Of a DNA stretch of 64,000 nucleotides, positions 11,085 through 21,835 are shown in pieces; position 1 is the first letter of the stretch; every line of letters begins with the position of its first letter. Under the pieces are notes generated by a model, which was not told the DNA's origin, did not search any database, and was given only the letters and a program-made list of their open reading frames with translations. The DNA lies in contig CAVWIH010000026.1 in assembly GCA_963755025.1 (NCBI GenBank), positions 1 to 64,000 on the forward strand, given 5' to 3'. Source of the DNA: an uncultured Actinomycetes bacterium (lineage in GTDB: Bacteria > Actinomycetota > Thermoleophilia > UBA2241). Made by a program: the position numbers and the translations under genes.

Positions 11085-12372
11085 GTGGACGAGGTCGGCA
11101 TCGGACTTGTGGGGTACGGCACGGTAGGCTCCGGCGTCGGGCGGCTGCTGCACGAAGGCGCCGACGAGATCCGCCTGGCGACCGGCAAGGACGTGCGCCT
11201 GCGCACGGTCTGCGAGCTGTCGCCCGAGCGCCGCGCCCAGGTGCCGCCGGGCGTGCACGTCACGACCGACTTCGCCGAGCTCGTCGCCGACCCCGCCATC
11301 CACATCGTCATCGAGCTGATCGGCGGCATCGAGCCGGCGCGCACCATCCAGCTCGCCGCCCTCGCCGCCGGCAAGTCGGTGGTGACCGCCAACAAGCAGC
11401 TCCTCTCGCAGCACGGCGCCGAGCTGCTGCAGACCGCCGAAGACCACGGCGCCTTCTTGCGCTTCGAAGCAAGCTCGGTGGGCGCCGTGCCGGTGATCAA
11501 GGTGCTGCGCGAGTCGCTCGCCGCGGCGCGCATCACCGGCGTCATGGGCATCGTCAACGGCACGACCAACTACATCCTCTCGGCCATGGCGCAGAGCGGC
11601 GCCGAGTACGCCCCGACGCTGGTGCAGCGCCCAGGAGCTGGGCTACGCCGAAGCCGACCCCACCGAGGACGTGACCGGCAAGGACGCGGCCGCCAAGATG
11701 GCGATCCTCTCGTCGATCGCCTTTCACAGCCGCGTCAACCTGGCCGACGTCGAGCACCAGGGCATCGAGTCGATCACCGACGTCGACGTGGCCTACGGCA
11801 AGGCCGCTCGGCCTCGTGCCCAAGCTGCTCGGCGTGGCCAAGCTCATCGACGGGCCGCGTCAACGTGCGCGTCTACCCCTGCTTCATCCCGACCGAGCAT
11901 CCGCTGGCCGGCGTCTCGGGCGCCTACAACGCCGTGTTCCTCGAGTCGCGACAGCTTCGACAACATCATGCTCTTCGGCCCCGGCGCCGGCGGCACGCCG
12001 ACCGCCTCGGCGGTGATCGGCGACGTCATCTCCATCGTCAACACGGCGGCCGGCGGCTACATCCGCAACTGCACCTGCTACAAGGACCTCGGCTTCTACC
12101 CGAGCGCCGAGGTGGTCTCGCACTTCTACCTGCGCGTGCGGGTGGCCGACGAGCCCGGCGTGCTGGCCGCCATCGCCGGCGTGTTCGGGCAGGAGGGCGT
12201 GAGCATCCAGTCCATGCAGCAGAGCGGCGAAGAAGACGCGGCCCAGCTCGTGCTGGTCTTTCACCCGGTGCGCGAGGCCGCCTTCTTCGGCGCCCTCGCC
12301 CGTATCGAGGCGCTGCCCGTCGTGCGCAGCCGCCCGAGCGTCGTGCGCATCGAGGGCCTCGATGGCCGCTGA
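11085..12372 (+). CDS. hom: Homoserine dehydrogenase with C-terminal ACT domain (several indels 11620-11950)
   Basis: [31 protein letters not shown] and [13 protein letters not shown] spread over three frames. Confidence 0.9.
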
Positions 12373-13540
12373 GCTCGCCGGCGGCGGGCGCGGCCGGGGC
12401 GTGATCGCCCACTACCGCGCCTACCTGCCGGTCACCGACGAAACGCCGATCGTCACCCTGGGCGAGGGCGACACGCCGCTCGTGGCGGCGCCCCACCTGG
12501 GCGCCGCGCTGGGCGTCGAGCTCTTCCTCAAGCTCGAGGGCGTCAACCCCACCTGCTCGTTCAAGGACCGCGGCATGACGATGGCCGTGACCAAGGTCGT
12601 CGAAGAGGGCTTCAAGGCCGTCATCTGCGCCTCGACGGGCAACACGAGCGCCTCGGCGGCGGCCTACGCGGCCAAGGCCGGCATACGGGCGATCGTCGTC
12701 ATCCCCGAGGGCAAGATCGCCATGGGCAAGCTCGCCCAGGCGGTCGCCTACGGCGCCCACGTGGTCTCCATTCCGGGCAACTTCGACGTCGCCTTCGACG
12801 TGGTGCGCGCCGCCGCCGCGGCCCTGCCCATCGCCCTGGTCAACTCGGTCAACCCCTTCCGCATCGAGGGCCAGAAGACCGGCGCCTTCGAGATCTGCGA
12901 CGCCCTCGGCGGGCCGCCCGCCTACCACTGCATCCCGGTGGGCAACGCCGGCAACATCACGAGCTACTGGAAGGGCTACCGCGAGTATCGCGAGGCCGGC
13001 GTCACCGACCGCCTGCCCGTCATGTGCGGTTTTCAGGCGGCCGGCGCGGCGCCGCTCGTGCTGGGCCACAAGGTCGAGGCGCCCGAGACCATCGCCACCG
13101 CCATCCGCATAGGCAACCCGGCGCGCGCCGACGAAGCGCTGGCCGCCGCGCACGACTCGGGCGGCTTCATCGACTCGGTCACCGACGACGAGATCCTGGC
13201 CGCCTACAAGCTCGTGGCGCTCACCGAGGGCGTGTTCTGCGAGCCGGCGAGCGCGGCCTCGATCGCGGGCCTGAAGAAGGCCCGCGACCAGGGCCGCATA
13301 CCGGCCGGCGCCGTGGTCGCCTGCGTGCTCACCGGGCACGGCCTCAAAGACCCCGACACCGCGGTGCGCACCGCGGCGCAGCCCGTCTTCACTCAAGACG
13401 CGCTGGCCGAGATCGAGCGCGCCCTGGCCACGCCCGCCGTGCCCGCCGGCTTCGCCGCGCCCGTCACGGCCGGCGCGGGCGCTGGGCCGGCAGGCTCCGA
13501 CGCCGCCGCCACGCCCGCCGAGCGCGCGACAAGGGCGTGA
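12362..13540 (+). CDS. thrC: Threonine synthase
   Basis: [41 protein letters not shown] and LTGHGLKDP. Confidence 0.95.
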
Positions 13541-13670
13541 CCTGCGCGCCTGCGGGGTATGCCTGCGGGGTATCCACCAGCGCCGAGGGCCGGCGGCGCC
13601 GCCAGCACGAGCTTCTGACCGGTCGGCTTGCCCGTAGTACGCCCGTGTGTGAAAGGAACATCCCTCACCC

Positions 13671-15941
13671 ATGGATCCTGAAAAGCCGCCGAAGCGCCGC
13701 TCTTCGGCCGCCGGGGAACGCCGCATCGCCCAGCCTCTGCCCCCCGAGACCGAGATCGTCATAGGTGACGAGCGCTTCGAGTCGCTCGGCCAGGCGAGCG
13801 CGGTCGAGGCCGCCGAACGCTACGTCATGACCGAACCGCGCCGCCGCCGCCTGGTCATCAAAGAGGACGAGCTCCTCATGTACACCGACGATGAGGGCTT
13901 CATTCCCGCGGCCGAGAGCTCGTCGCTGGGCCTTTACTTTCGCGACACGCGCTTTCTGTCGCGTCTCGAGATGACGATCGGCGGGCGGCGGCCGGTGCTG
14001 CTCTCGTCGACCGCCGAGCGCAACTACGTCTCGTCGGCCGAGTTCACCAACCTCGAGATCAAGGCGCCGGGCGGCGAGAAGATCCCGCAGACCTCGGTGC
14101 ACGTGCGCCGCACGCGGCTCGTGTCGGACCGCATCTACGAGCTGCTGCGCATCAAGAACTACCACTCGGCGCCGGTCGAGGTCGACATAGAGCTCACCTT
14201 CGACGCCGACTTTCGCGACATGTTCGAGGTGCGCGGCACGCGCCGCCACAAGCGCGGCACGCGCCTGGCGCCCAAGGTCGACGGCTCCACCCTGACGCTC
14301 GCCTACTACGGCCTCGACGAGGTGCTGCGCAAGACGATCGTGCGCTTTGCCCAGCCGCCGGCCCGCCTGCGGGGCGGCACGGCGAGCTTTCGTGTGAGCC
14401 TCGCGCCGCGCGAACGCAAGGTGGTGCGCTTCTCGATCGAGGTGGCCGTGCCCGACGCCCCGCCCTTGAGCGACGGCGACTTCACGGCGCGCCTCACCGA
14501 CATGCGCCGCGACTACGAGCGCTCCTTCGCCGGCGCGACCGGCATCTTCACCGACTCCGAGCAGGTGACCGGCGTGCTGCGCCGCGGCCAGGCCGACCTG
14601 CGCATGCTCTCCATGGACACGCAGTACGGCCGCACCTACGCGGCCGCCGTGCCCTGGTTCGTGGCGCCCTTCGGGCGCGACTCGATCATCGCCTGCCTCG
14701 AGACGCTCATGCTCGACACGCGCCCGGCGGTCGACGCCGTGCGCTTTCTCACGCGTCTGCAGGGCCGCACCGACAACGCCTTCCGCGAGGAGGAGCCCGG
14801 CAAGATCCTGCACGAGCTGCGCCGCGGCGAGCTCGCCGCCCTCAAGGCCATCCCCCACACGCCCTACTACGGCGCCGTCGACTCGACCGCGCTCTACCTG
14901 TTGCTCGTCTGCGAGGTGGTCATGTGGACCGGCGACCTCGAGTTCTTCGAGCTGCTGCGCGAGCCCATCGAGGCCGCCCTGCGCTGGATCGACACCTGCG
15001 GCGACGCCGACGGCGACGGCTTCGTCGAGTACCAGCGGCGCTCGCGCGCCGGCCTCGAGAACCAGGGCTGGCGCGACGCCCGCGACGCCATCGTGCACCG
15101 CGACGGCACGCCGGCGCAGGGGCCCATCGCCCTGGCCGAATCGCAGGCCTACGTGTACTACGCCAAGCGCCGCCTCGCGATTCTCTTCGGGCAGCTCGCC
15201 GACGTCGAGATCTCGGAGCGCCTGCAGGCCGAGTCGCAGGCCCTCAAGCTGCGCTTCAACGAGCGCTTCTGGATGGACGACGAAGGCTACGTGGCGATGG
15301 CCTTGGACGGCGACAAGCGCCAGGTCAAGACCATCGTCTCGACGGCCGGCCACTGCCTCTGGTCGCGTATTCTGGCCGACGAGCACGTGCCGGCCGTGGC
15401 CGAGCGCCTGCTCTCGCCCGACATGTTCTCGGGCTGGGGGGTGCGCAGCATGTCGAAGGCGGCGGCGCCCTACAGCCCCATGAGCCTCTACAACGGCAGC
15501 GTCTGGCCGTACGACAACGCGCTCATGGTCACCGGCCTCAAAAAGCACGGCTTCACGCAAGAGGCCAACCGCCTGGCCGGCGCCCTGTTCGACGCGGCGC
15601 TCGAGCAGCAGTACTCGCGCCTGCCCGAGTTCATCTGCGGCTTCACCCGCCAGGCGGTCAACCGGCCGGTGGCCTACCCCATGGCCTGCTCGCCCGACGC
15701 GCCGGCCGCCGGCGCGCCGTTCCTCATGCTGCAGGCCATGCTCGGCCTGTTCGCCAGCGCCGCCGAGAACGTGCTCTACGTGCACAACCCGTCGCTGCCC
15801 AAGTGGCTGAACGAGGTCACGCTCTCCAACCTGAGCGTGGGCCGCTCAAAGCTCAGCCTGCGCTTTCGACGCGACGGCAACCAGACCACCTTCTCGGTGC
15901 GCGACAAGCAGGGCGGCGTGCGCGTCGTCGTCGTGGAATAG
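13671..15941 (+). CDS. Amylo-alpha-1,6-glucosidase / glycogen-debranching-like glycoside hydrolase
   Basis: GLYFRDTRFLS, ADFRDMFEVRG, PWF..FGRDS, EEPGKILHELR, NQGW.D, NGSVWP.DN and RLPE..CG motifs. Confidence 0.85.
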   Translation: MDPEKPPKRRSSAAGERRIAQPLPPETEIVIGDERFESLGQASAVEAAERYVMTEPRRRRLVIKEDELLMYTDDEGFIPAAESSSLGLYFRDTRFLSRLEMTIGGRRPVLLSSTAERNYVSSAEFTNLEIKAPGGEKIPQTSVHVRRTRLVSDRIYELLRIKNYHSAPVEVDIELTFDADFRDMFEVRGTRRHKRGTRLAPKVDGSTLTLAYYGLDEVLRKTIVRFAQPPARLRGGTASFRVSLAPRERKVVRFSIEVAVPDAPPLSDGDFTARLTDMRRDYERSFAGATGIFTDSEQVTGVLRRGQADLRMLSMDTQYGRTYAAAVPWFVAPFGRDSIIACLETLMLDTRPAVDAVRFLTRLQGRTDNAFREEEPGKILHELRRGELAALKAIPHTPYYGAVDSTALYLLLVCEVVMWTGDLEFFELLREPIEAALRWIDTCGDADGDGFVEYQRRSRAGLENQGWRDARDAIVHRDGTPAQGPIALAESQAYVYYAKRRLAILFGQLADVEISERLQAESQALKLRFNERFWMDDEGYVAMALDGDKRQVKTIVSTAGHCLWSRILADEHVPAVAERLLSPDMFSGWGVRSMSKAAAPYSPMSLYNGSVWPYDNALMVTGLKKHGFTQEANRLAGALFDAALEQQYSRLPEFICGFTRQAVNRPVAYPMACSPDAPAAGAPFLMLQAMLGLFASAAENVLYVHNPSLPKWLNEVTLSNLSVGRSKLSLRFRRDGNQTTFSVRDKQGGVRVVVVE

Positions 15942-15950
15942 GAGAGCGCC

Positions 15951-16739
15951 ATGGCCCCCTTCGTCATCGCCCACGTCTCCGACTTTCACGCCGGCTCGCC
16001 GTACTTCGTGGCCAACCTCATGGACCGCGCCGTCGTCGAGCTGAACGAGCTCAGACCCGACGTGGTGGCGGTCACCGGCGACCTCACCAACGAGGGCTTC
16101 AAGCAGGAGTTCCAGGTGGCCAAGAGCTACCTCGACCGCCTCGAGTGCCCCCACCTGCTGGTGATTCCGGGCAACCACGACTCGCGCAACGTGGGCTACG
16201 TGCACTTCGAGCACCTCTTCGGGCCGCGCGCCGTGGTGCTGCACACCGGCGACATCTCGATCGTGGGGGTCGACTCCACCGAGCCCGACCTCGACTACGG
16301 CACCATCGGCCGCTCGCGCTACGGCTGGCTCGAGGAGCAGTTTTCGGTGCCCGCCCGCTTTCGCATCTTCATGCTGCACCACCACCTGCTGCCCATCCCC
16401 GGCACGGGGCGCGAGCGCAACATGGTCTACGACGCCGGCGACACCCTCGAGGTGCTGCAGCGCTGCAACGTGAACCTCGTGCTGTCGGGCCACAAACACG
16501 TGCCGCACGCCTGGCATTTTGAGAACATGTTCGTGGTGAACGCCGGCACGGTCTGCTCGCTGCGGCTGCGCGGCGACACCCGGCCCTGCTACAACATCGT
16601 GACGATCGACGACGACCACGTGCGCGTCGAGCGCAAGTACCCCTTCCACGGCACCGAGACGATCATCGAGTTCTCGCCCTCGACGCTGCACTACCAGAAG
16701 TTCGCCGGCCGGCCCGACGAGCGCCGGCTGCAGAAGTAG
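15951..16739 (+). CDS. Calcineurin-like metallophosphoesterase (Icc/CpdA-like)
   Basis: HVSDFH, TGDLT, PGNHD, LHHH and SGHKH motifs. Confidence 0.9.
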   Translation: MAPFVIAHVSDFHAGSPYFVANLMDRAVVELNELRPDVVAVTGDLTNEGFKQEFQVAKSYLDRLECPHLLVIPGNHDSRNVGYVHFEHLFGPRAVVLHTGDISIVGVDSTEPDLDYGTIGRSRYGWLEEQFSVPARFRIFMLHHHLLPIPGTGRERNMVYDAGDTLEVLQRCNVNLVLSGHKHVPHAWHFENMFVVNAGTVCSLRLRGDTRPCYNIVTIDDDHVRVERKYPFHGTETIIEFSPSTLHYQKFAGRPDERRLQK

Positions 16740-16759
16740 GGCGGGGCCGCAGCCACAAA

Positions 16760-16808
16760 CAAGCCCGCACCAGACGGCAAGCCCGCACCAAGCGACAAGC
16801 CCGCACCA
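16760..16808. repeat. 18-bp-period tandem repeat, core CAAGCCCGCACCA x3
   Basis: Copies start at 16760, 16778 and 16796. Confidence 0.7.
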
Positions 16809-16863
16809 CGTACCACGAAGACCTGCTGTTCGAAGGCCGACCGCACAACCGACGGGGGGCGGC

Positions 16864-18531
16864 GTGGACCCAAGCAGCGTCAACCCGACTAGCGGCAACC
16901 CAGGCGACGCGAGCCCGAGCGGAGCGGCTCCCGGCGGAGCGGCTCCGAGCGGCGCTGATCCAAGAGAGCCCGCGATCGCGCTGATCGACGGCGAGCACTA
17001 CCCGGCGGTCGTGGTCGACACGCTGCGCGAGCTCTCGGCGCGCTACCGGTTCGTGGCCGCCCTCTTTCTGGGCGGCGGCGAGAAGCTGCGCGCAGGCGAT
17101 GCGCGCGGGCTCGACGAGCTCTACGGCCTGCCGGTCACGCCGGCGCCGGTCGCCGCGCCGGGCGCGCCGGCCGGCGAGCGCGGCGCGGCTGCCGCGGGCG
17201 CCGGAAGCGGCGGCGCCGCAGGCGCCGCCGCCCTGCGCGGCGCCCTCGCCGGGCTGCTGGCAGGCTCGGGCGCGCGAGTGGTCGTTGACGTGTCCGACGA
17301 ACCGGTGCTAGGGTACGAAGAGCGGTTCCAGCTCATCAGTGTGGCGTTGTCTTGGGGTGCACGCTACGTGGGGGCCGACTTTCAGTTCTCACCCCAGTCT
17401 CTTGCACGACTCTCCAGCAAGCCGTCGCTTGCGATCATAGGAACCGGAAAACGGGTCGGAAAGACCGCCGTGAGCGGGCTCTTCGGCCGGCGGCTCGGCG
17501 CCCGTTACGGGCTCGAGCAGGTGGTGATCGTGGCGATGGGGCGCGGGGGACCGGCGGCTCCGCAGGTGGTCCGCGGCGGCGACAAGCTCGGCGCCAAGGG
17601 CCTGCTGGCCGTCTCAAGGCAAGGCCTGCATGCAGCGTCCGACTACCTCGAAGACGCCGTGCTGACCGGCGTGACAACGGTCGGTTGCCGGCGATGCGGC
17701 GGCGGTATGGCGGGGGCTTCCATGAGCGACACGGTGGGCGCAGCCCTCGGTGTCGTACACGACATGGACGCCGCCATCGTGATCTTCGAGGGCAGCGGTT
17801 CGGCGATACCGCCGGTGCAGGCGCAAGCGGTCGTCTGCGTGGCTTCGGCCTCGCAGCCGCCCGAGTACATAACAGGGTATCTGGGTACGTATCGAATGCT
17901 CATTTCCGACGCACTCTTCCTCACCATGTGTGAACCACCCTTCTGCGATGCAGCTCGCGTGGCCACGCTGCGCGACGCCGTCCTCGCCACAAACCCCGAC
18001 ATCGACGTCGTGCCGACCGTCTTTCGGCCGCGGCCGGTCGACTCCGTCGCCGGCCGCCGGGTGGCCTACTTCTCAACGGCGGCGCCCGAGAGCGCCGGCC
18101 TGCTGGCGCGCCACCTCGAAGAGGTCCACGGCGCCAGGGTCACGCTGGTCTCTACCGACCTCGCGCGCCGGCCGGCGCTGCAGCAGGCGATCGCCGCCGC
18201 CGGCAAGGCCGACGTGTTCCTCACCGAGATCAAGGCGGCGGCCGTCGACGTAGTCGCCGAAGCCGCCGCGGCGCAGGGTAAAGAGCTCGTCTTTTGCGAC
18301 AACGAACCGGTGGCCCTCGACGGTCGCGACCTGTCGGCCACCATCGACGGGCTCACCGACACGGCGCTGGCGCGCTACGCGGCGGGGCAGTACGGCCCGC
18401 CTCAGGGCGCCGCCGCGCCACACAGCGCCGCTTCACACGGTGCCGCGTCATACGGGGCCGCGTCACACGAGCCGGCGCCACACAAGCCGGCGCCACACGA
18501 TTCCGATCCCACCGAGAGGGGGCAGTCATGA
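16864..18531 (+). CDS. cpgS: Cyclic 2,3-diphosphoglycerate synthetase
   Basis: ALIDGEHYP, DVSDEPVL, GTGKRVGKTAVS, AMGRGGP, HAASDYLED, GCRRCGGG, EGSG and TEIKAAAVDVV match archaeal CpgS; start uncertain. Confidence 0.85.
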   Translation: MDPSSVNPTSGNPGDASPSGAAPGGAAPSGADPREPAIALIDGEHYPAVVVDTLRELSARYRFVAALFLGGGEKLRAGDARGLDELYGLPVTPAPVAAPGAPAGERGAAAAGAGSGGAAGAAALRGALAGLLAGSGARVVVDVSDEPVLGYEERFQLISVALSWGARYVGADFQFSPQSLARLSSKPSLAIIGTGKRVGKTAVSGLFGRRLGARYGLEQVVIVAMGRGGPAAPQVVRGGDKLGAKGLLAVSRQGLHAASDYLEDAVLTGVTTVGCRRCGGGMAGASMSDTVGAALGVVHDMDAAIVIFEGSGSAIPPVQAQAVVCVASASQPPEYITGYLGTYRMLISDALFLTMCEPPFCDAARVATLRDAVLATNPDIDVVPTVFRPRPVDSVAGRRVAYFSTAAPESAGLLARHLEEVHGARVTLVSTDLARRPALQQAIAAAGKADVFLTEIKAAAVDVVAEAAAAQGKELVFCDNEPVALDGRDLSATIDGLTDTALARYAAGQYGPPQGAAAPHSAASHGAASYGAASHEPAPHKPAPHDSDPTERGQS

Positions 18532-19463
18532 CCGACGACGTCGAGATGGTGGTCGTCACCCGCGACCCGCAGCTGCCCTACTCCAAGGGCCTCATGGCGC
18601 AGGCCCTCATGGCCACCGGCCTGCCGCCCGAACGCGCCTACCAGATCGCCTCGGCGGTCGGCGAGCGCCTGCACGACAGCCGGCAGGGCACCATCACCCT
18701 GCAGGGCCTCGAAGAGATCGCCACCGAGGTACTCGGCGACGACGACGGCAAGGCCACCATCGCCCGGTTTCGCAAATGGCAGAACCTCACGCGGCTGGCG
18801 CAGCCCCTGGTCATACTGGTGGGCGGCACCACCGGCGTCGGCAAGAGCACGCTGGCCACGCAGATCGCCCATCGCCTGGGCATCTCGCGCGTCGTCTCGA
18901 CCGACACCGTGCGCCAGGTCATGCGCGCCTTCTTCGCCCCCGACCTCATGCCCGAGATCCAGTACTCGTCGTTCGAAGCGGCCGCCGGCGTGCGCATTCC
19001 GCTGCCCGACTGGAGCGACGTCGACGAAGCCGGCTTCATCGAGCAGGCCAAGAGCATCGCGGTGGGCGTCAACGCCGTCGTCGACCGCGCCATCACCGAG
19101 GGCCAGCGCACCATCATCGAAGGCGTGCACCTCGTGCCCGGCTTTCTCGACCGCAGCCGCTGGAACCAGGCCGTGGTGGTCGAGGTCGTGCTCGCCATCC
19201 GCGACCTCGAGCGGCACCGCAGCCACTTCTACGTGCGCGAGTGGGAGACCGACGGCATCAGGCCGCTGCGCCGCTACATCACCGGGTTCCCCAAGATCAG
19301 AAAGGTCCAGGACTACATTCTCGCCCAGGCCGCAAAGCAGGGCGTGACCGTCCTCGAGAACGACAGCATCGACCAGACCGTCAAGGCGGTCATGGCCCAT
19401 GTGCTCGACGCAGTAGCCGACTACACCCAGCCGGCGCCCGCACCCAAAGCAGTAGGAGGATGA
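18528..19463 (+). CDS. pgk2: 2-phosphoglycerate kinase (ATP-cone plus P-loop)
   Basis: PYSKGLMA ATP-cone, GGTTGVGKST, STDTVRQVMR, IIEGVHLVPG; ATGA overlap with cpgS. Confidence 0.85.
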   Translation: MTDDVEMVVVTRDPQLPYSKGLMAQALMATGLPPERAYQIASAVGERLHDSRQGTITLQGLEEIATEVLGDDDGKATIARFRKWQNLTRLAQPLVILVGGTTGVGKSTLATQIAHRLGISRVVSTDTVRQVMRAFFAPDLMPEIQYSSFEAAAGVRIPLPDWSDVDEAGFIEQAKSIAVGVNAVVDRAITEGQRTIIEGVHLVPGFLDRSRWNQAVVVEVVLAIRDLERHRSHFYVREWETDGIRPLRRYITGFPKIRKVQDYILAQAAKQGVTVLENDSIDQTVKAVMAHVLDAVADYTQPAPAPKAVGG

Positions 19464-19695
19464 TGGAGCCCATCGCCGACACCGTGAGCACCCGCGACCC
19501 GGTACGCAACACTCAAGCCGCGCGCGGCGGTGCCGATATCGCTACCATCCCATCCCAGGTGCTCCCTCACATGGCCGAACGGCAACGCCGGTTCGGACCG
19601 ACAGAAAGGAGCCCGCGCTTGGGCATCTCACACCGGACGAACCCCCACATCGCCGGTCGCCCGACCCAACCGAGAATCCCGATCGCGAGACAATC

Positions 19696-19699
<4 letters not shown>
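19460..19699 (+). pseudogene. Internally deleted transaldolase / fructose-6-phosphate aldolase (Fsa/TalC) relic
   Basis: MMEPIADT then VSTRDPVRNTQAARGGADIATIPSQVLPHM aligns with Fsa N-terminus (MxxxxDT) and C-terminal SxRxPxxxxxAAxxGADIATIPxxVLxxM; AGGAGG immediately upstream; tal commonly lies upstream of rho. Confidence 0.65.
19513..19539 (+). promoter_or_regulatory. sigma-28-type promoter upstream of rho
   Basis: TCAA-N15-GCCGATAT; could be coincidental because it coincides with TQAA..GADI codons. Confidence 0.4.

Positions 19700-21835
<2,136 letters not shown>

Follow-up and report, generated by a model that had tools for sequence, protein, structure and literature searches.

The locus analyzed here raises the question of whether the enzyme that degrades cyclic 2,3-diphosphoglycerate (cDPG) is encoded next to the enzyme that makes it. 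In a stretch of 64,000 nucleotides from an uncultured member of the Thermoleophilia (GenBank assembly GCA_963755025.1, contig CAVWIH010000026.1, positions 1 to 64,000; hereafter the window), a metallophosphoesterase gene (MPE) precedes cpgS, a homologue of the cDPG synthetase gene, and an earlier note on this DNA had proposed MPE as a candidate cDPG hydrolase. An activity that hydrolyses cDPG to 2,3-diphosphoglycerate (2,3-DPG) is on record: it is described in the accessible part of the review PMC1224877, and cDPG hydrolase activity of Methanothermobacter thermautotrophicus is named in the title of Sastry 1992, as cited in the accessible part of PMC10690619. These sources bear out the statement of the note that the activity had been reported in methanogens. 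The note had also believed the hydrolase gene to be unassigned. No gene assigned to the hydrolase was found in the literature searched, which did not include the primary hydrolase papers, and no publication pairing 'diphosphoglycerate synthetase' with 'metallophosphoesterase' was found either; this agrees with the belief but does not prove it.

The features of the locus are listed in Table 1. The source genome is a 3.37 Mb, 84%-complete assembly in which MPE is present in a single copy; its nearest protein relatives carry names that indicate Thermoleophilia. The five metal sites that had been read in the protein (DxH, GD, GNHD, H and GHxH) were all located, at D11-F-H13, G43-D44, G74-N75-H76-D77, H143-H144-H145 and G180-H181-K182-H183, and their residues were invariant in a 32-sequence alignment of relatives. 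Pfam Metallophos (PF00149) matched the protein with 63.7 bits against a gathering cut-off of 21.5 bits (E 4e-17). The AlphaFold model (pLDDT 90.7, pTM 0.90) together with a Foldseek search of the PDB indicated the two-layer beta-sandwich fold; the search gave 420 matches at E <= 0.001, and all of those listed belong to the metallophosphoesterase superfamily. The top solved folds were GpdQ (E 7e-16) and Rv0805 (E 2e-15), with TM about 0.67 and 21-24% identity, and purple acid phosphatases ranked 8 to 21. No membrane segment was predicted in MPE (maximum 19-residue hydropathy 1.18), and peripheral membrane association may occur.

Table 1. Position of the features of the MPE locus in the window and, in the last line, of an archaeal-type locus on a metagenome contig
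Feature	Position	Strand	Remarks
Glycoside hydrolase, GDE_N_bis / MGH1-like type, 756 aa	13671..15941	+	Pfam GDE_N_bis 5.3e-62, MGH1-like_GH 1.5e-16
GGAG, ribosome-binding-like site	15941..15944	+	6 nt before the MPE ATG; direct sequence reading
MPE, TGRERN-loop subfamily, candidate cDPG hydrolase	15951..16739	+	ORF from ATG to TAG, 262 aa, 29.9 kDa, pI 6.2
Codons of H143-N157 (HHHLLPIPGTGRERN), metal-binding His and invariant loop of the subfamily	16377..16421	+	
18-bp tandem repeat in the MPE-cpgS spacer, 2.8 copies	16759..16808	+	core CAAGCCCGCACCA, three exact copies
cpgS, cyclic 2,3-diphosphoglycerate synthetase homologue	16864..18531	+	longest ORF; homology begins near residue 37
2-phosphoglycerate kinase (2PGK) homologue	18525..19463	+	NCBIfam NF003259 6e-86, 288.6 bits, below the 343-bit cut-off
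cpgS-2PGK-CBS-double MPE	L126 10243-12194		also at L127-L129, L137, L138, L148, L153, L176, L190, L198

In an NCBIfam search MPE reached no curated cut-off: the protein scored 44.9 bits against 225 for the CpdA equivalog model NF008359, 42 against 400 for SpdA (NF050112), 25.8 against 350 for LpxG (NF033458) and 71.1 against 420 for the anti-phage DS9 model (NF053862). A look-up in the ESM Atlas returned its own family only. MPE is a clear member of the metallophosphoesterase superfamily, in a distinct cross-domain subfamily of its own.

The best solved match, GpdQ of Enterobacter aerogenes (PDB 2ZO9, 3D03 and 2DXL; phmmer E 9.1e-12, Foldseek E 6.8e-16, TM 0.67), has the same two-metal set as MPE. 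On the other hand, GpdQ is only 21-22% identical, has HHPPLPLG where MPE has HHHLLPIPGTGRERN, acts on a simple glycerophosphodiester according to its entry title, and showed no link to cpgS. Rv0805, the class III cyclic-nucleotide phosphodiesterase of Mycobacterium tuberculosis (PDB 2HY1 and 3IB7), also has the fold and the metal ligands of MPE, but it is 23-24% identical and carries HHPP... in place of the loop. The five-motif active site common to MPE and Rv0805, and the names '3',5'-cyclic AMP phosphodiesterase CpdA' and 'Icc protein' given by source annotation to relatives of MPE, would suit an ordinary cyclic-nucleotide phosphodiesterase (CpdA/Icc) found beside cpgS merely through inherited gene order. 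We consider this very unlikely, given how far MPE falls below the curated CpdA cut-off and how distant it is from both solved relatives; moreover, its pairing with cpgS is kept in two gene orders and across domains, and it is present or absent together with cpgS, as described below.

The loop that directly follows H143-H144-H145 (residues 146-157, LLPIPGTGRERN) had been called distinctive in the note. The description holds in so far as the loop is missing from the nearest solved relatives, GpdQ and Rv0805, but it is common to all members of the subfamily, including the copies that lie away from cpgS. The subfamily pattern is HHHxxPxPxTGRERN after the fourth metal motif (residues 143-157 of the window MPE), and P150, T152, G153, R154, E155, R156 and N157 were invariant in 14 sequences from Actinomycetota, Thermococcus and Methanobacteriaceae. 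This region is the least certain ordered part of the MPE model (pLDDT about 70). The idea that the TGRERN loop is specific to cpgS-linked copies was rejected because unlinked paralogues carry it too, indicating that the loop marks the subfamily and not the linkage. The unlinked copies formed one clade inside the bacterial group of the tree. In three Thermoleophilia genomes (L113, L114 and L115) they adjoin copper P-type ATPase and rhodanese genes, at L117, L120 and L122 they adjoin genes for CofC, an FrhB-like protein or GpsA (glycerol-3-phosphate dehydrogenase), and one genome (G051) retains a loop-bearing paralogue without cpgS.

MPE had been placed immediately upstream of cpgS. It does precede cpgS, but 124 nt separate its stop codon from the first possible cpgS start, a GTG; the 2PGK start overlaps the cpgS stop by 7 nt. 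The cpgS product matched the solved cDPG synthetase of Methanothermus fervidus (PDB 8ORK, E 2.7e-94; 9SXB, E 4.6e-90), and its Walker A residues K196, R197, G199, K200 and T201 were invariant in the alignment. No Pfam or NCBIfam model matched the window cpgS. Its residues from about 95 to 135 form an Ala/Gly-rich insert, and the match to the solved archaeal enzyme is split into 37-95 and 136-487. The MPE-cpgS-2PGK block is flanked by lysA-hom-thrC and rho-rpmE-thyX.

The glycoside hydrolase gene stops 9 nt before the MPE start. Among close relatives it was found upstream of MPE in the family of the window (f1) only; it is also upstream at 13 of the best 80 genome loci described below and at two metagenome loci (L193 and L197), and the loci that have it include distant lineages, with 43-48% identity. 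The gene is a lineage-specific neighbour outside the conserved core. It was rejected as the working partner of MPE, since most of the loci that keep MPE-cpgS lack it. A link between a glycosyl-glycerate-type hydrolase (GDE_N_bis / mannosylglycerate-hydrolase-like) and a glycerate-derived solute is conceivable.

The association of MPE with cpgS was determined in 61 genomes of close relatives, each searched with the MPE and cpgS proteins. Both genes were present in 41 genomes, MPE only in two and neither in 18, most of the latter being 96-100% complete. In all 41 genomes with both, the genes lie side by side on one strand with MPE first. Of the two genomes with MPE only, G008 has a contig that stops one base beyond the match, and the copy in G051 is a 47%-identical paralogue. 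One genus (g10) is itself divided, with both genes in two genomes and neither gene in five. Twenty loci were fetched from four families, and all 20 had the order MPE-cpgS-2PGK; of the three proteins encoded there, MPE was the best conserved (59-95% identity; cpgS 41-73%, 2PGK 44-87%).

The profiling of the TGRERN-loop subfamily against cpgS that the note had called for was carried out in 301 evenly drawn Actinomycetota genomes (296 of high quality), with E <= 1e-30 for MPE, cpgS and 2PGK. The MPE subfamily was found in 175, cpgS in 177 and 2PGK in 176 of them. MPE and cpgS occurred together in 174 genomes, MPE only in one (G051), cpgS only in three (G088, G247 and G317) and neither in 123, so that MPE was present in 174 of the 177 cpgS-bearing genomes; the subfamily is thus co-distributed with cpgS and not distributed independently of it. 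For 2PGK and cpgS the corresponding numbers were 174 with both, two with 2PGK only and three with cpgS only. MPE tracks cpgS as tightly as does 2PGK, the accepted pathway partner. The three genomes with cpgS only (93-95% complete) gave generic phosphoesterases only, with best E values of 2.9e-14 to 8.3e-8 when queried with a profile. The tallies include eleven unpublished genomes (G306, G153, G272, G283, G087, G071, G182, G206, G115, G229 and G134), all of which have both genes; leaving them out, both genes occur together in 163. These counts overstate the number of independent events, because related genomes are not independent and whole families carry or lack the set. In family f9 both genes were found in 21 of 21 genomes, on different contigs where coordinates were compared (G143, G169 and G315). 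The presence of cpgS homologues in 177 of 301 Actinomycetota genomes makes them far commoner in bacteria than the literature consulted suggests.

A wider scan used one genome per species and a pattern derived from a 15-sequence cpgS alignment; at least 567 of 598 matched stretches were confirmed as cpgS, and the best 80 were kept. Nearly all of these best 80 are labelled Actinomycetota (Thermoleophilia, Gaiellaceae, Rubrobacter, Coriobacteriia, Acidimicrobiia, Euzebyaceae and Aquicultor), and named cpgS representatives also came from Cloacimonadota, Bipolaricaulota, Eremiobacterota and Asgard archaea. Among the best 80 of at least 567, 78 loci had enough upstream sequence, and at 66 of these the gene directly before cpgS is MPE. 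At 13 Rubrobacter-type loci MPE-cpgS is kept and 2PGK is not downstream, indicating that MPE is the closer partner of cpgS there. Ten of the genomes behind the 12 loci with no MPE beside cpgS were searched (one of the genomes without adjacent MPE that were searched, G062, is unpublished): an unlinked copy, with 44-54% identity, turned up in seven of them and no copy in the other three.

Archaeal-leaning cpgS representatives were chosen from a FastTree tree, and metagenome contigs were scanned with an alignment headed by the Thermococcus-type cpgS, which gave 80 archaeal-leaning loci. The bacterial order, with MPE upstream, was present at 19 loci and a second order at 13; cpgS-2PGK with no MPE in the flanks was present at four, and cpgS alone, with neither MPE nor 2PGK nearby, at 44. 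The second order, seen on Thermococcus-like and other contigs, consists of cpgS, 2PGK, a gene for a CBS-pair protein of 136-150 aa and a double MPE of 499-518 aa, tightly packed on one strand at 11 loci and convergent at two. The identity of the CBS-pair protein was confirmed in all nine cases tested, and L148 lacks the CBS gene. At L126 the double MPE is 91% identical to a Thermococcus aggregans protein, and its named relatives come from Palaeococcus, Pyrococcus yayanosii, Theionarchaea, Methanofastidiosia, Thermoplasmatota and Desulfurobacterium. Like the window MPE, the double MPE of Thermococcales is encoded with cpgS and 2PGK, and in its N-terminal domain it shares with the window MPE 44% identity, all the motifs and the TGRERN loop. 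In contrast to it, the archaeal protein is encoded downstream and not upstream of cpgS, is preceded by the CBS-pair protein and is fused to a second domain in which the metal motifs have decayed (GNHD to GHND, GHxH to GHGG, no DxH). The protein thus has the look of a fused pseudo-dimer.

The subfamily also has single-domain members of 244-256 aa, with names from Methanobrevibacter and Methanobacteriaceae, in which the invariant P-x-T-G-R-E-R-N is likewise present. The Methanobacteriaceae include Methanothermobacter, the source of the reported hydrolase activity. Two of the 44 loci with cpgS alone (L192 and L200, both of low GC) look like methanogens: cpgS lies beside genes for methenyl-H4MPT cyclohydrolase, ComA and a CCG-domain (cysteine-rich) protein, with no 2PGK or MPE in the flanks, suggesting that the genes are dispersed in that kind of methanogen. 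The Methanothermus fervidus cluster, sought among the cpgS representatives with three short motifs, was not found. Because MPE and cpgS are co-distributed and are joined in two independent operon architectures, in bacteria and in archaea, their tie is well supported, and a functional connection of MPE to the cDPG pathway is highly probable.

In metallophosphoesterases a metal-bridged hydroxide splits phosphodiesters as well as the pyrophosphate diesters found in nucleotide sugars, and the weak matches of MPE to LpxG and SpdA are consistent with such superfamily chemistry. As cDPG is itself a pyrophosphate diester, in cyclic form, an enzyme of this fold would be naturally suited to opening the ring to give 2,3-DPG. 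The enzyme would be a soluble two-metal-site phosphoesterase, and its cross-domain subfamily would be dedicated to the cDPG pathway. The metal-bridged hydroxide would attack the cyclic pyrophosphate of cDPG, opening the ring to 2,3-DPG, and the highly anionic substrate would be bound by the invariant arginines, R154 and R156 of the flexible loop after the metal-binding histidine among them. Following pathway logic, 2PGK and cpgS would spend two ATP on making cDPG, the hydrolase would free 2,3-DPG, and 2PGK working in reverse could give back 2-phosphoglycerate and ATP. According to the title of van Alebeek 1991, as listed among the references of PMC10690619, 2PGK is able to consume 2,3-DPG in reverse. 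Synthesis of cDPG would require no third enzyme and the hydrolase would be the sole step missing from the cycle; MPE, cpgS and 2PGK together would make a complete cycle in which phosphate, carbon and energy are stored and released. In the archaeal form, the neighbouring CBS-pair protein would be in keeping with a catabolic step that is gated.

The substrate of MPE, the direction of the cycle and its regulation are what we infer from the data and did not observe. From the chemistry of the fold and the logic of the pathway, we give about an even chance to the reading that MPE opens the cDPG ring, that is, acts as a cDPG hydrolase. A fuller version is put forward tentatively, with a chance somewhat short of even: MPE may be the long-missing cDPG hydrolase and, with cpgS and a reversible 2PGK, may form a self-contained three-gene phosphoanhydride store, charged with ATP and discharged on demand, that occurs widely among Actinomycetota (about 58% of the species sampled) and among archaea of several orders, where a CBS sensor protein together with a fused pseudo-enzyme domain would gate the archaeal form.

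The same genomic linkage would be expected if MPE were instead a phosphatase acting on 2,3-DPG or another phosphoglycerate of the pathway, trimming or recycling an intermediate without opening the cDPG ring. The fold does include monoesterases, among them the purple acid phosphatases that appeared in the fold search, and a role in holding 2,3-DPG low would fit. However, the nearest folds and sequence relatives, GpdQ and Rv0805, are diesterases, it is less easy to see why an operon would drain the substrate of its own cpgS, and the reverse reaction of 2PGK named in the title of van Alebeek 1991 can already use up 2,3-DPG. We regard a phosphatase of this kind as unlikely, though as a serious alternative to ring opening.

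MPE could also belong to the cDPG module with a different job, clearing a side product of the kinase or the synthetase, acting on an end product derived from cDPG in bacteria, or serving chiefly as a regulatory partner. Linkage alone names no substrate; MPE is better conserved than either biosynthetic enzyme, and the archaeal fusion to a degenerate domain and the pairing with a CBS protein hint at regulation. In addition, cDPG has been reported from hyperthermophilic methanogens only, according to the accessible part of PMC10690619, and by that account has never been shown in bacteria, so that the product of the bacterial pathway is itself presumed. The invariance of the metal ligands throughout the subfamily, on the other hand, argues for catalysis. 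We know of no candidate side product of 2PGK or cpgS, which also speaks against this alternative, and on balance we hold such a role to be unlikely but, like the phosphatase, a serious alternative.

Returning to the hydrolase reading, the cDPG hydrolase of Methanothermobacter thermautotrophicus catalyses the very reaction proposed for MPE, and MPE has relatives in the Methanobacteriaceae. That enzyme is known as an activity, which the accessible part of PMC1224877 describes as membrane-bound and inhibited by K+ and phosphate, whereas the window MPE looks soluble; the lack of a predicted membrane segment counts against the reading. So does gene order, in that a hydrolase transcribed together with the synthetase would create a futile cycle unless it were regulated after translation. 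Also against it are the three of 177 cpgS genomes with generic phosphoesterases only, the 12 of 78 loci without an adjacent MPE, the 44 of 80 metagenome loci with cpgS alone, the loop-bearing paralogues beside copper ATPase and rhodanese genes, and the copy retained without cpgS in G051.

A storage role for cDPG has been proposed, and the accessible part of the review PMC1224877 treats it together with cDPG hydrolysis. In Pyrococcus yayanosii the two genes for cDPG synthesis respond to pressure stress (accessible part of PMC4890121). The compound is studied as a protective solute with industrial uses, structures are available for the enzymes that make it and its one-step enzymatic preparation has been published, as stated in the accessible parts of PMC10690619 and PMC12136491. 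A named hydrolase candidate makes the turnover of cDPG directly testable, since the compound can now be made enzymatically (accessible part of PMC12136491), and the candidate would be of use for cDPG production strains, in which the hydrolase must be absent. If the three-gene store exists as proposed, cDPG would be a common bacterial metabolite and not a curiosity of hot-spring methanogens, and the presence of the gene set in 174 of 301 Actinomycetota genomes raises the question of what cDPG does in soil, wetland and gut-type bacteria.

The spacer between MPE and cpgS has features of its own. The core of its 18-bp repeat, CAAGCCCGCACCA, is present there in three exact copies, where chance would give 0.19 matches over the entire window, and the repeat may represent a binding site or an expansion specific to the strain. 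A promoter and terminator scan of 13400-19800 gave no promoter-like and four terminator-like sites, against 2.5 expected. Contigs from four wetland or permafrost RNA libraries, of four studies, matched parts of the glycoside hydrolase, MPE, cpgS and 2PGK genes, mostly with 90-95% likeness. One of them crosses the junction of the glycoside hydrolase and MPE genes, and another joins the end of MPE to cpgS with 239 nt of the spacer skipped; the bin 16775-16968 of the window was covered by no RNA-library contig, a gap to which we attach no meaning. These contigs come from relatives and are evidence of presence, not proof of a single transcript.

Further upstream, the homoserine dehydrogenase gene (11085-12404) looks frameshifted: the long ORF is Arg-rich nonsense past about residue 187, homoserine-dehydrogenase-like sequence goes on in an overlapping ORF (11671-12372), and the Pfam catalytic domain is found in two pieces. 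The frameshift could be an assembly error or could mark a pseudogene.
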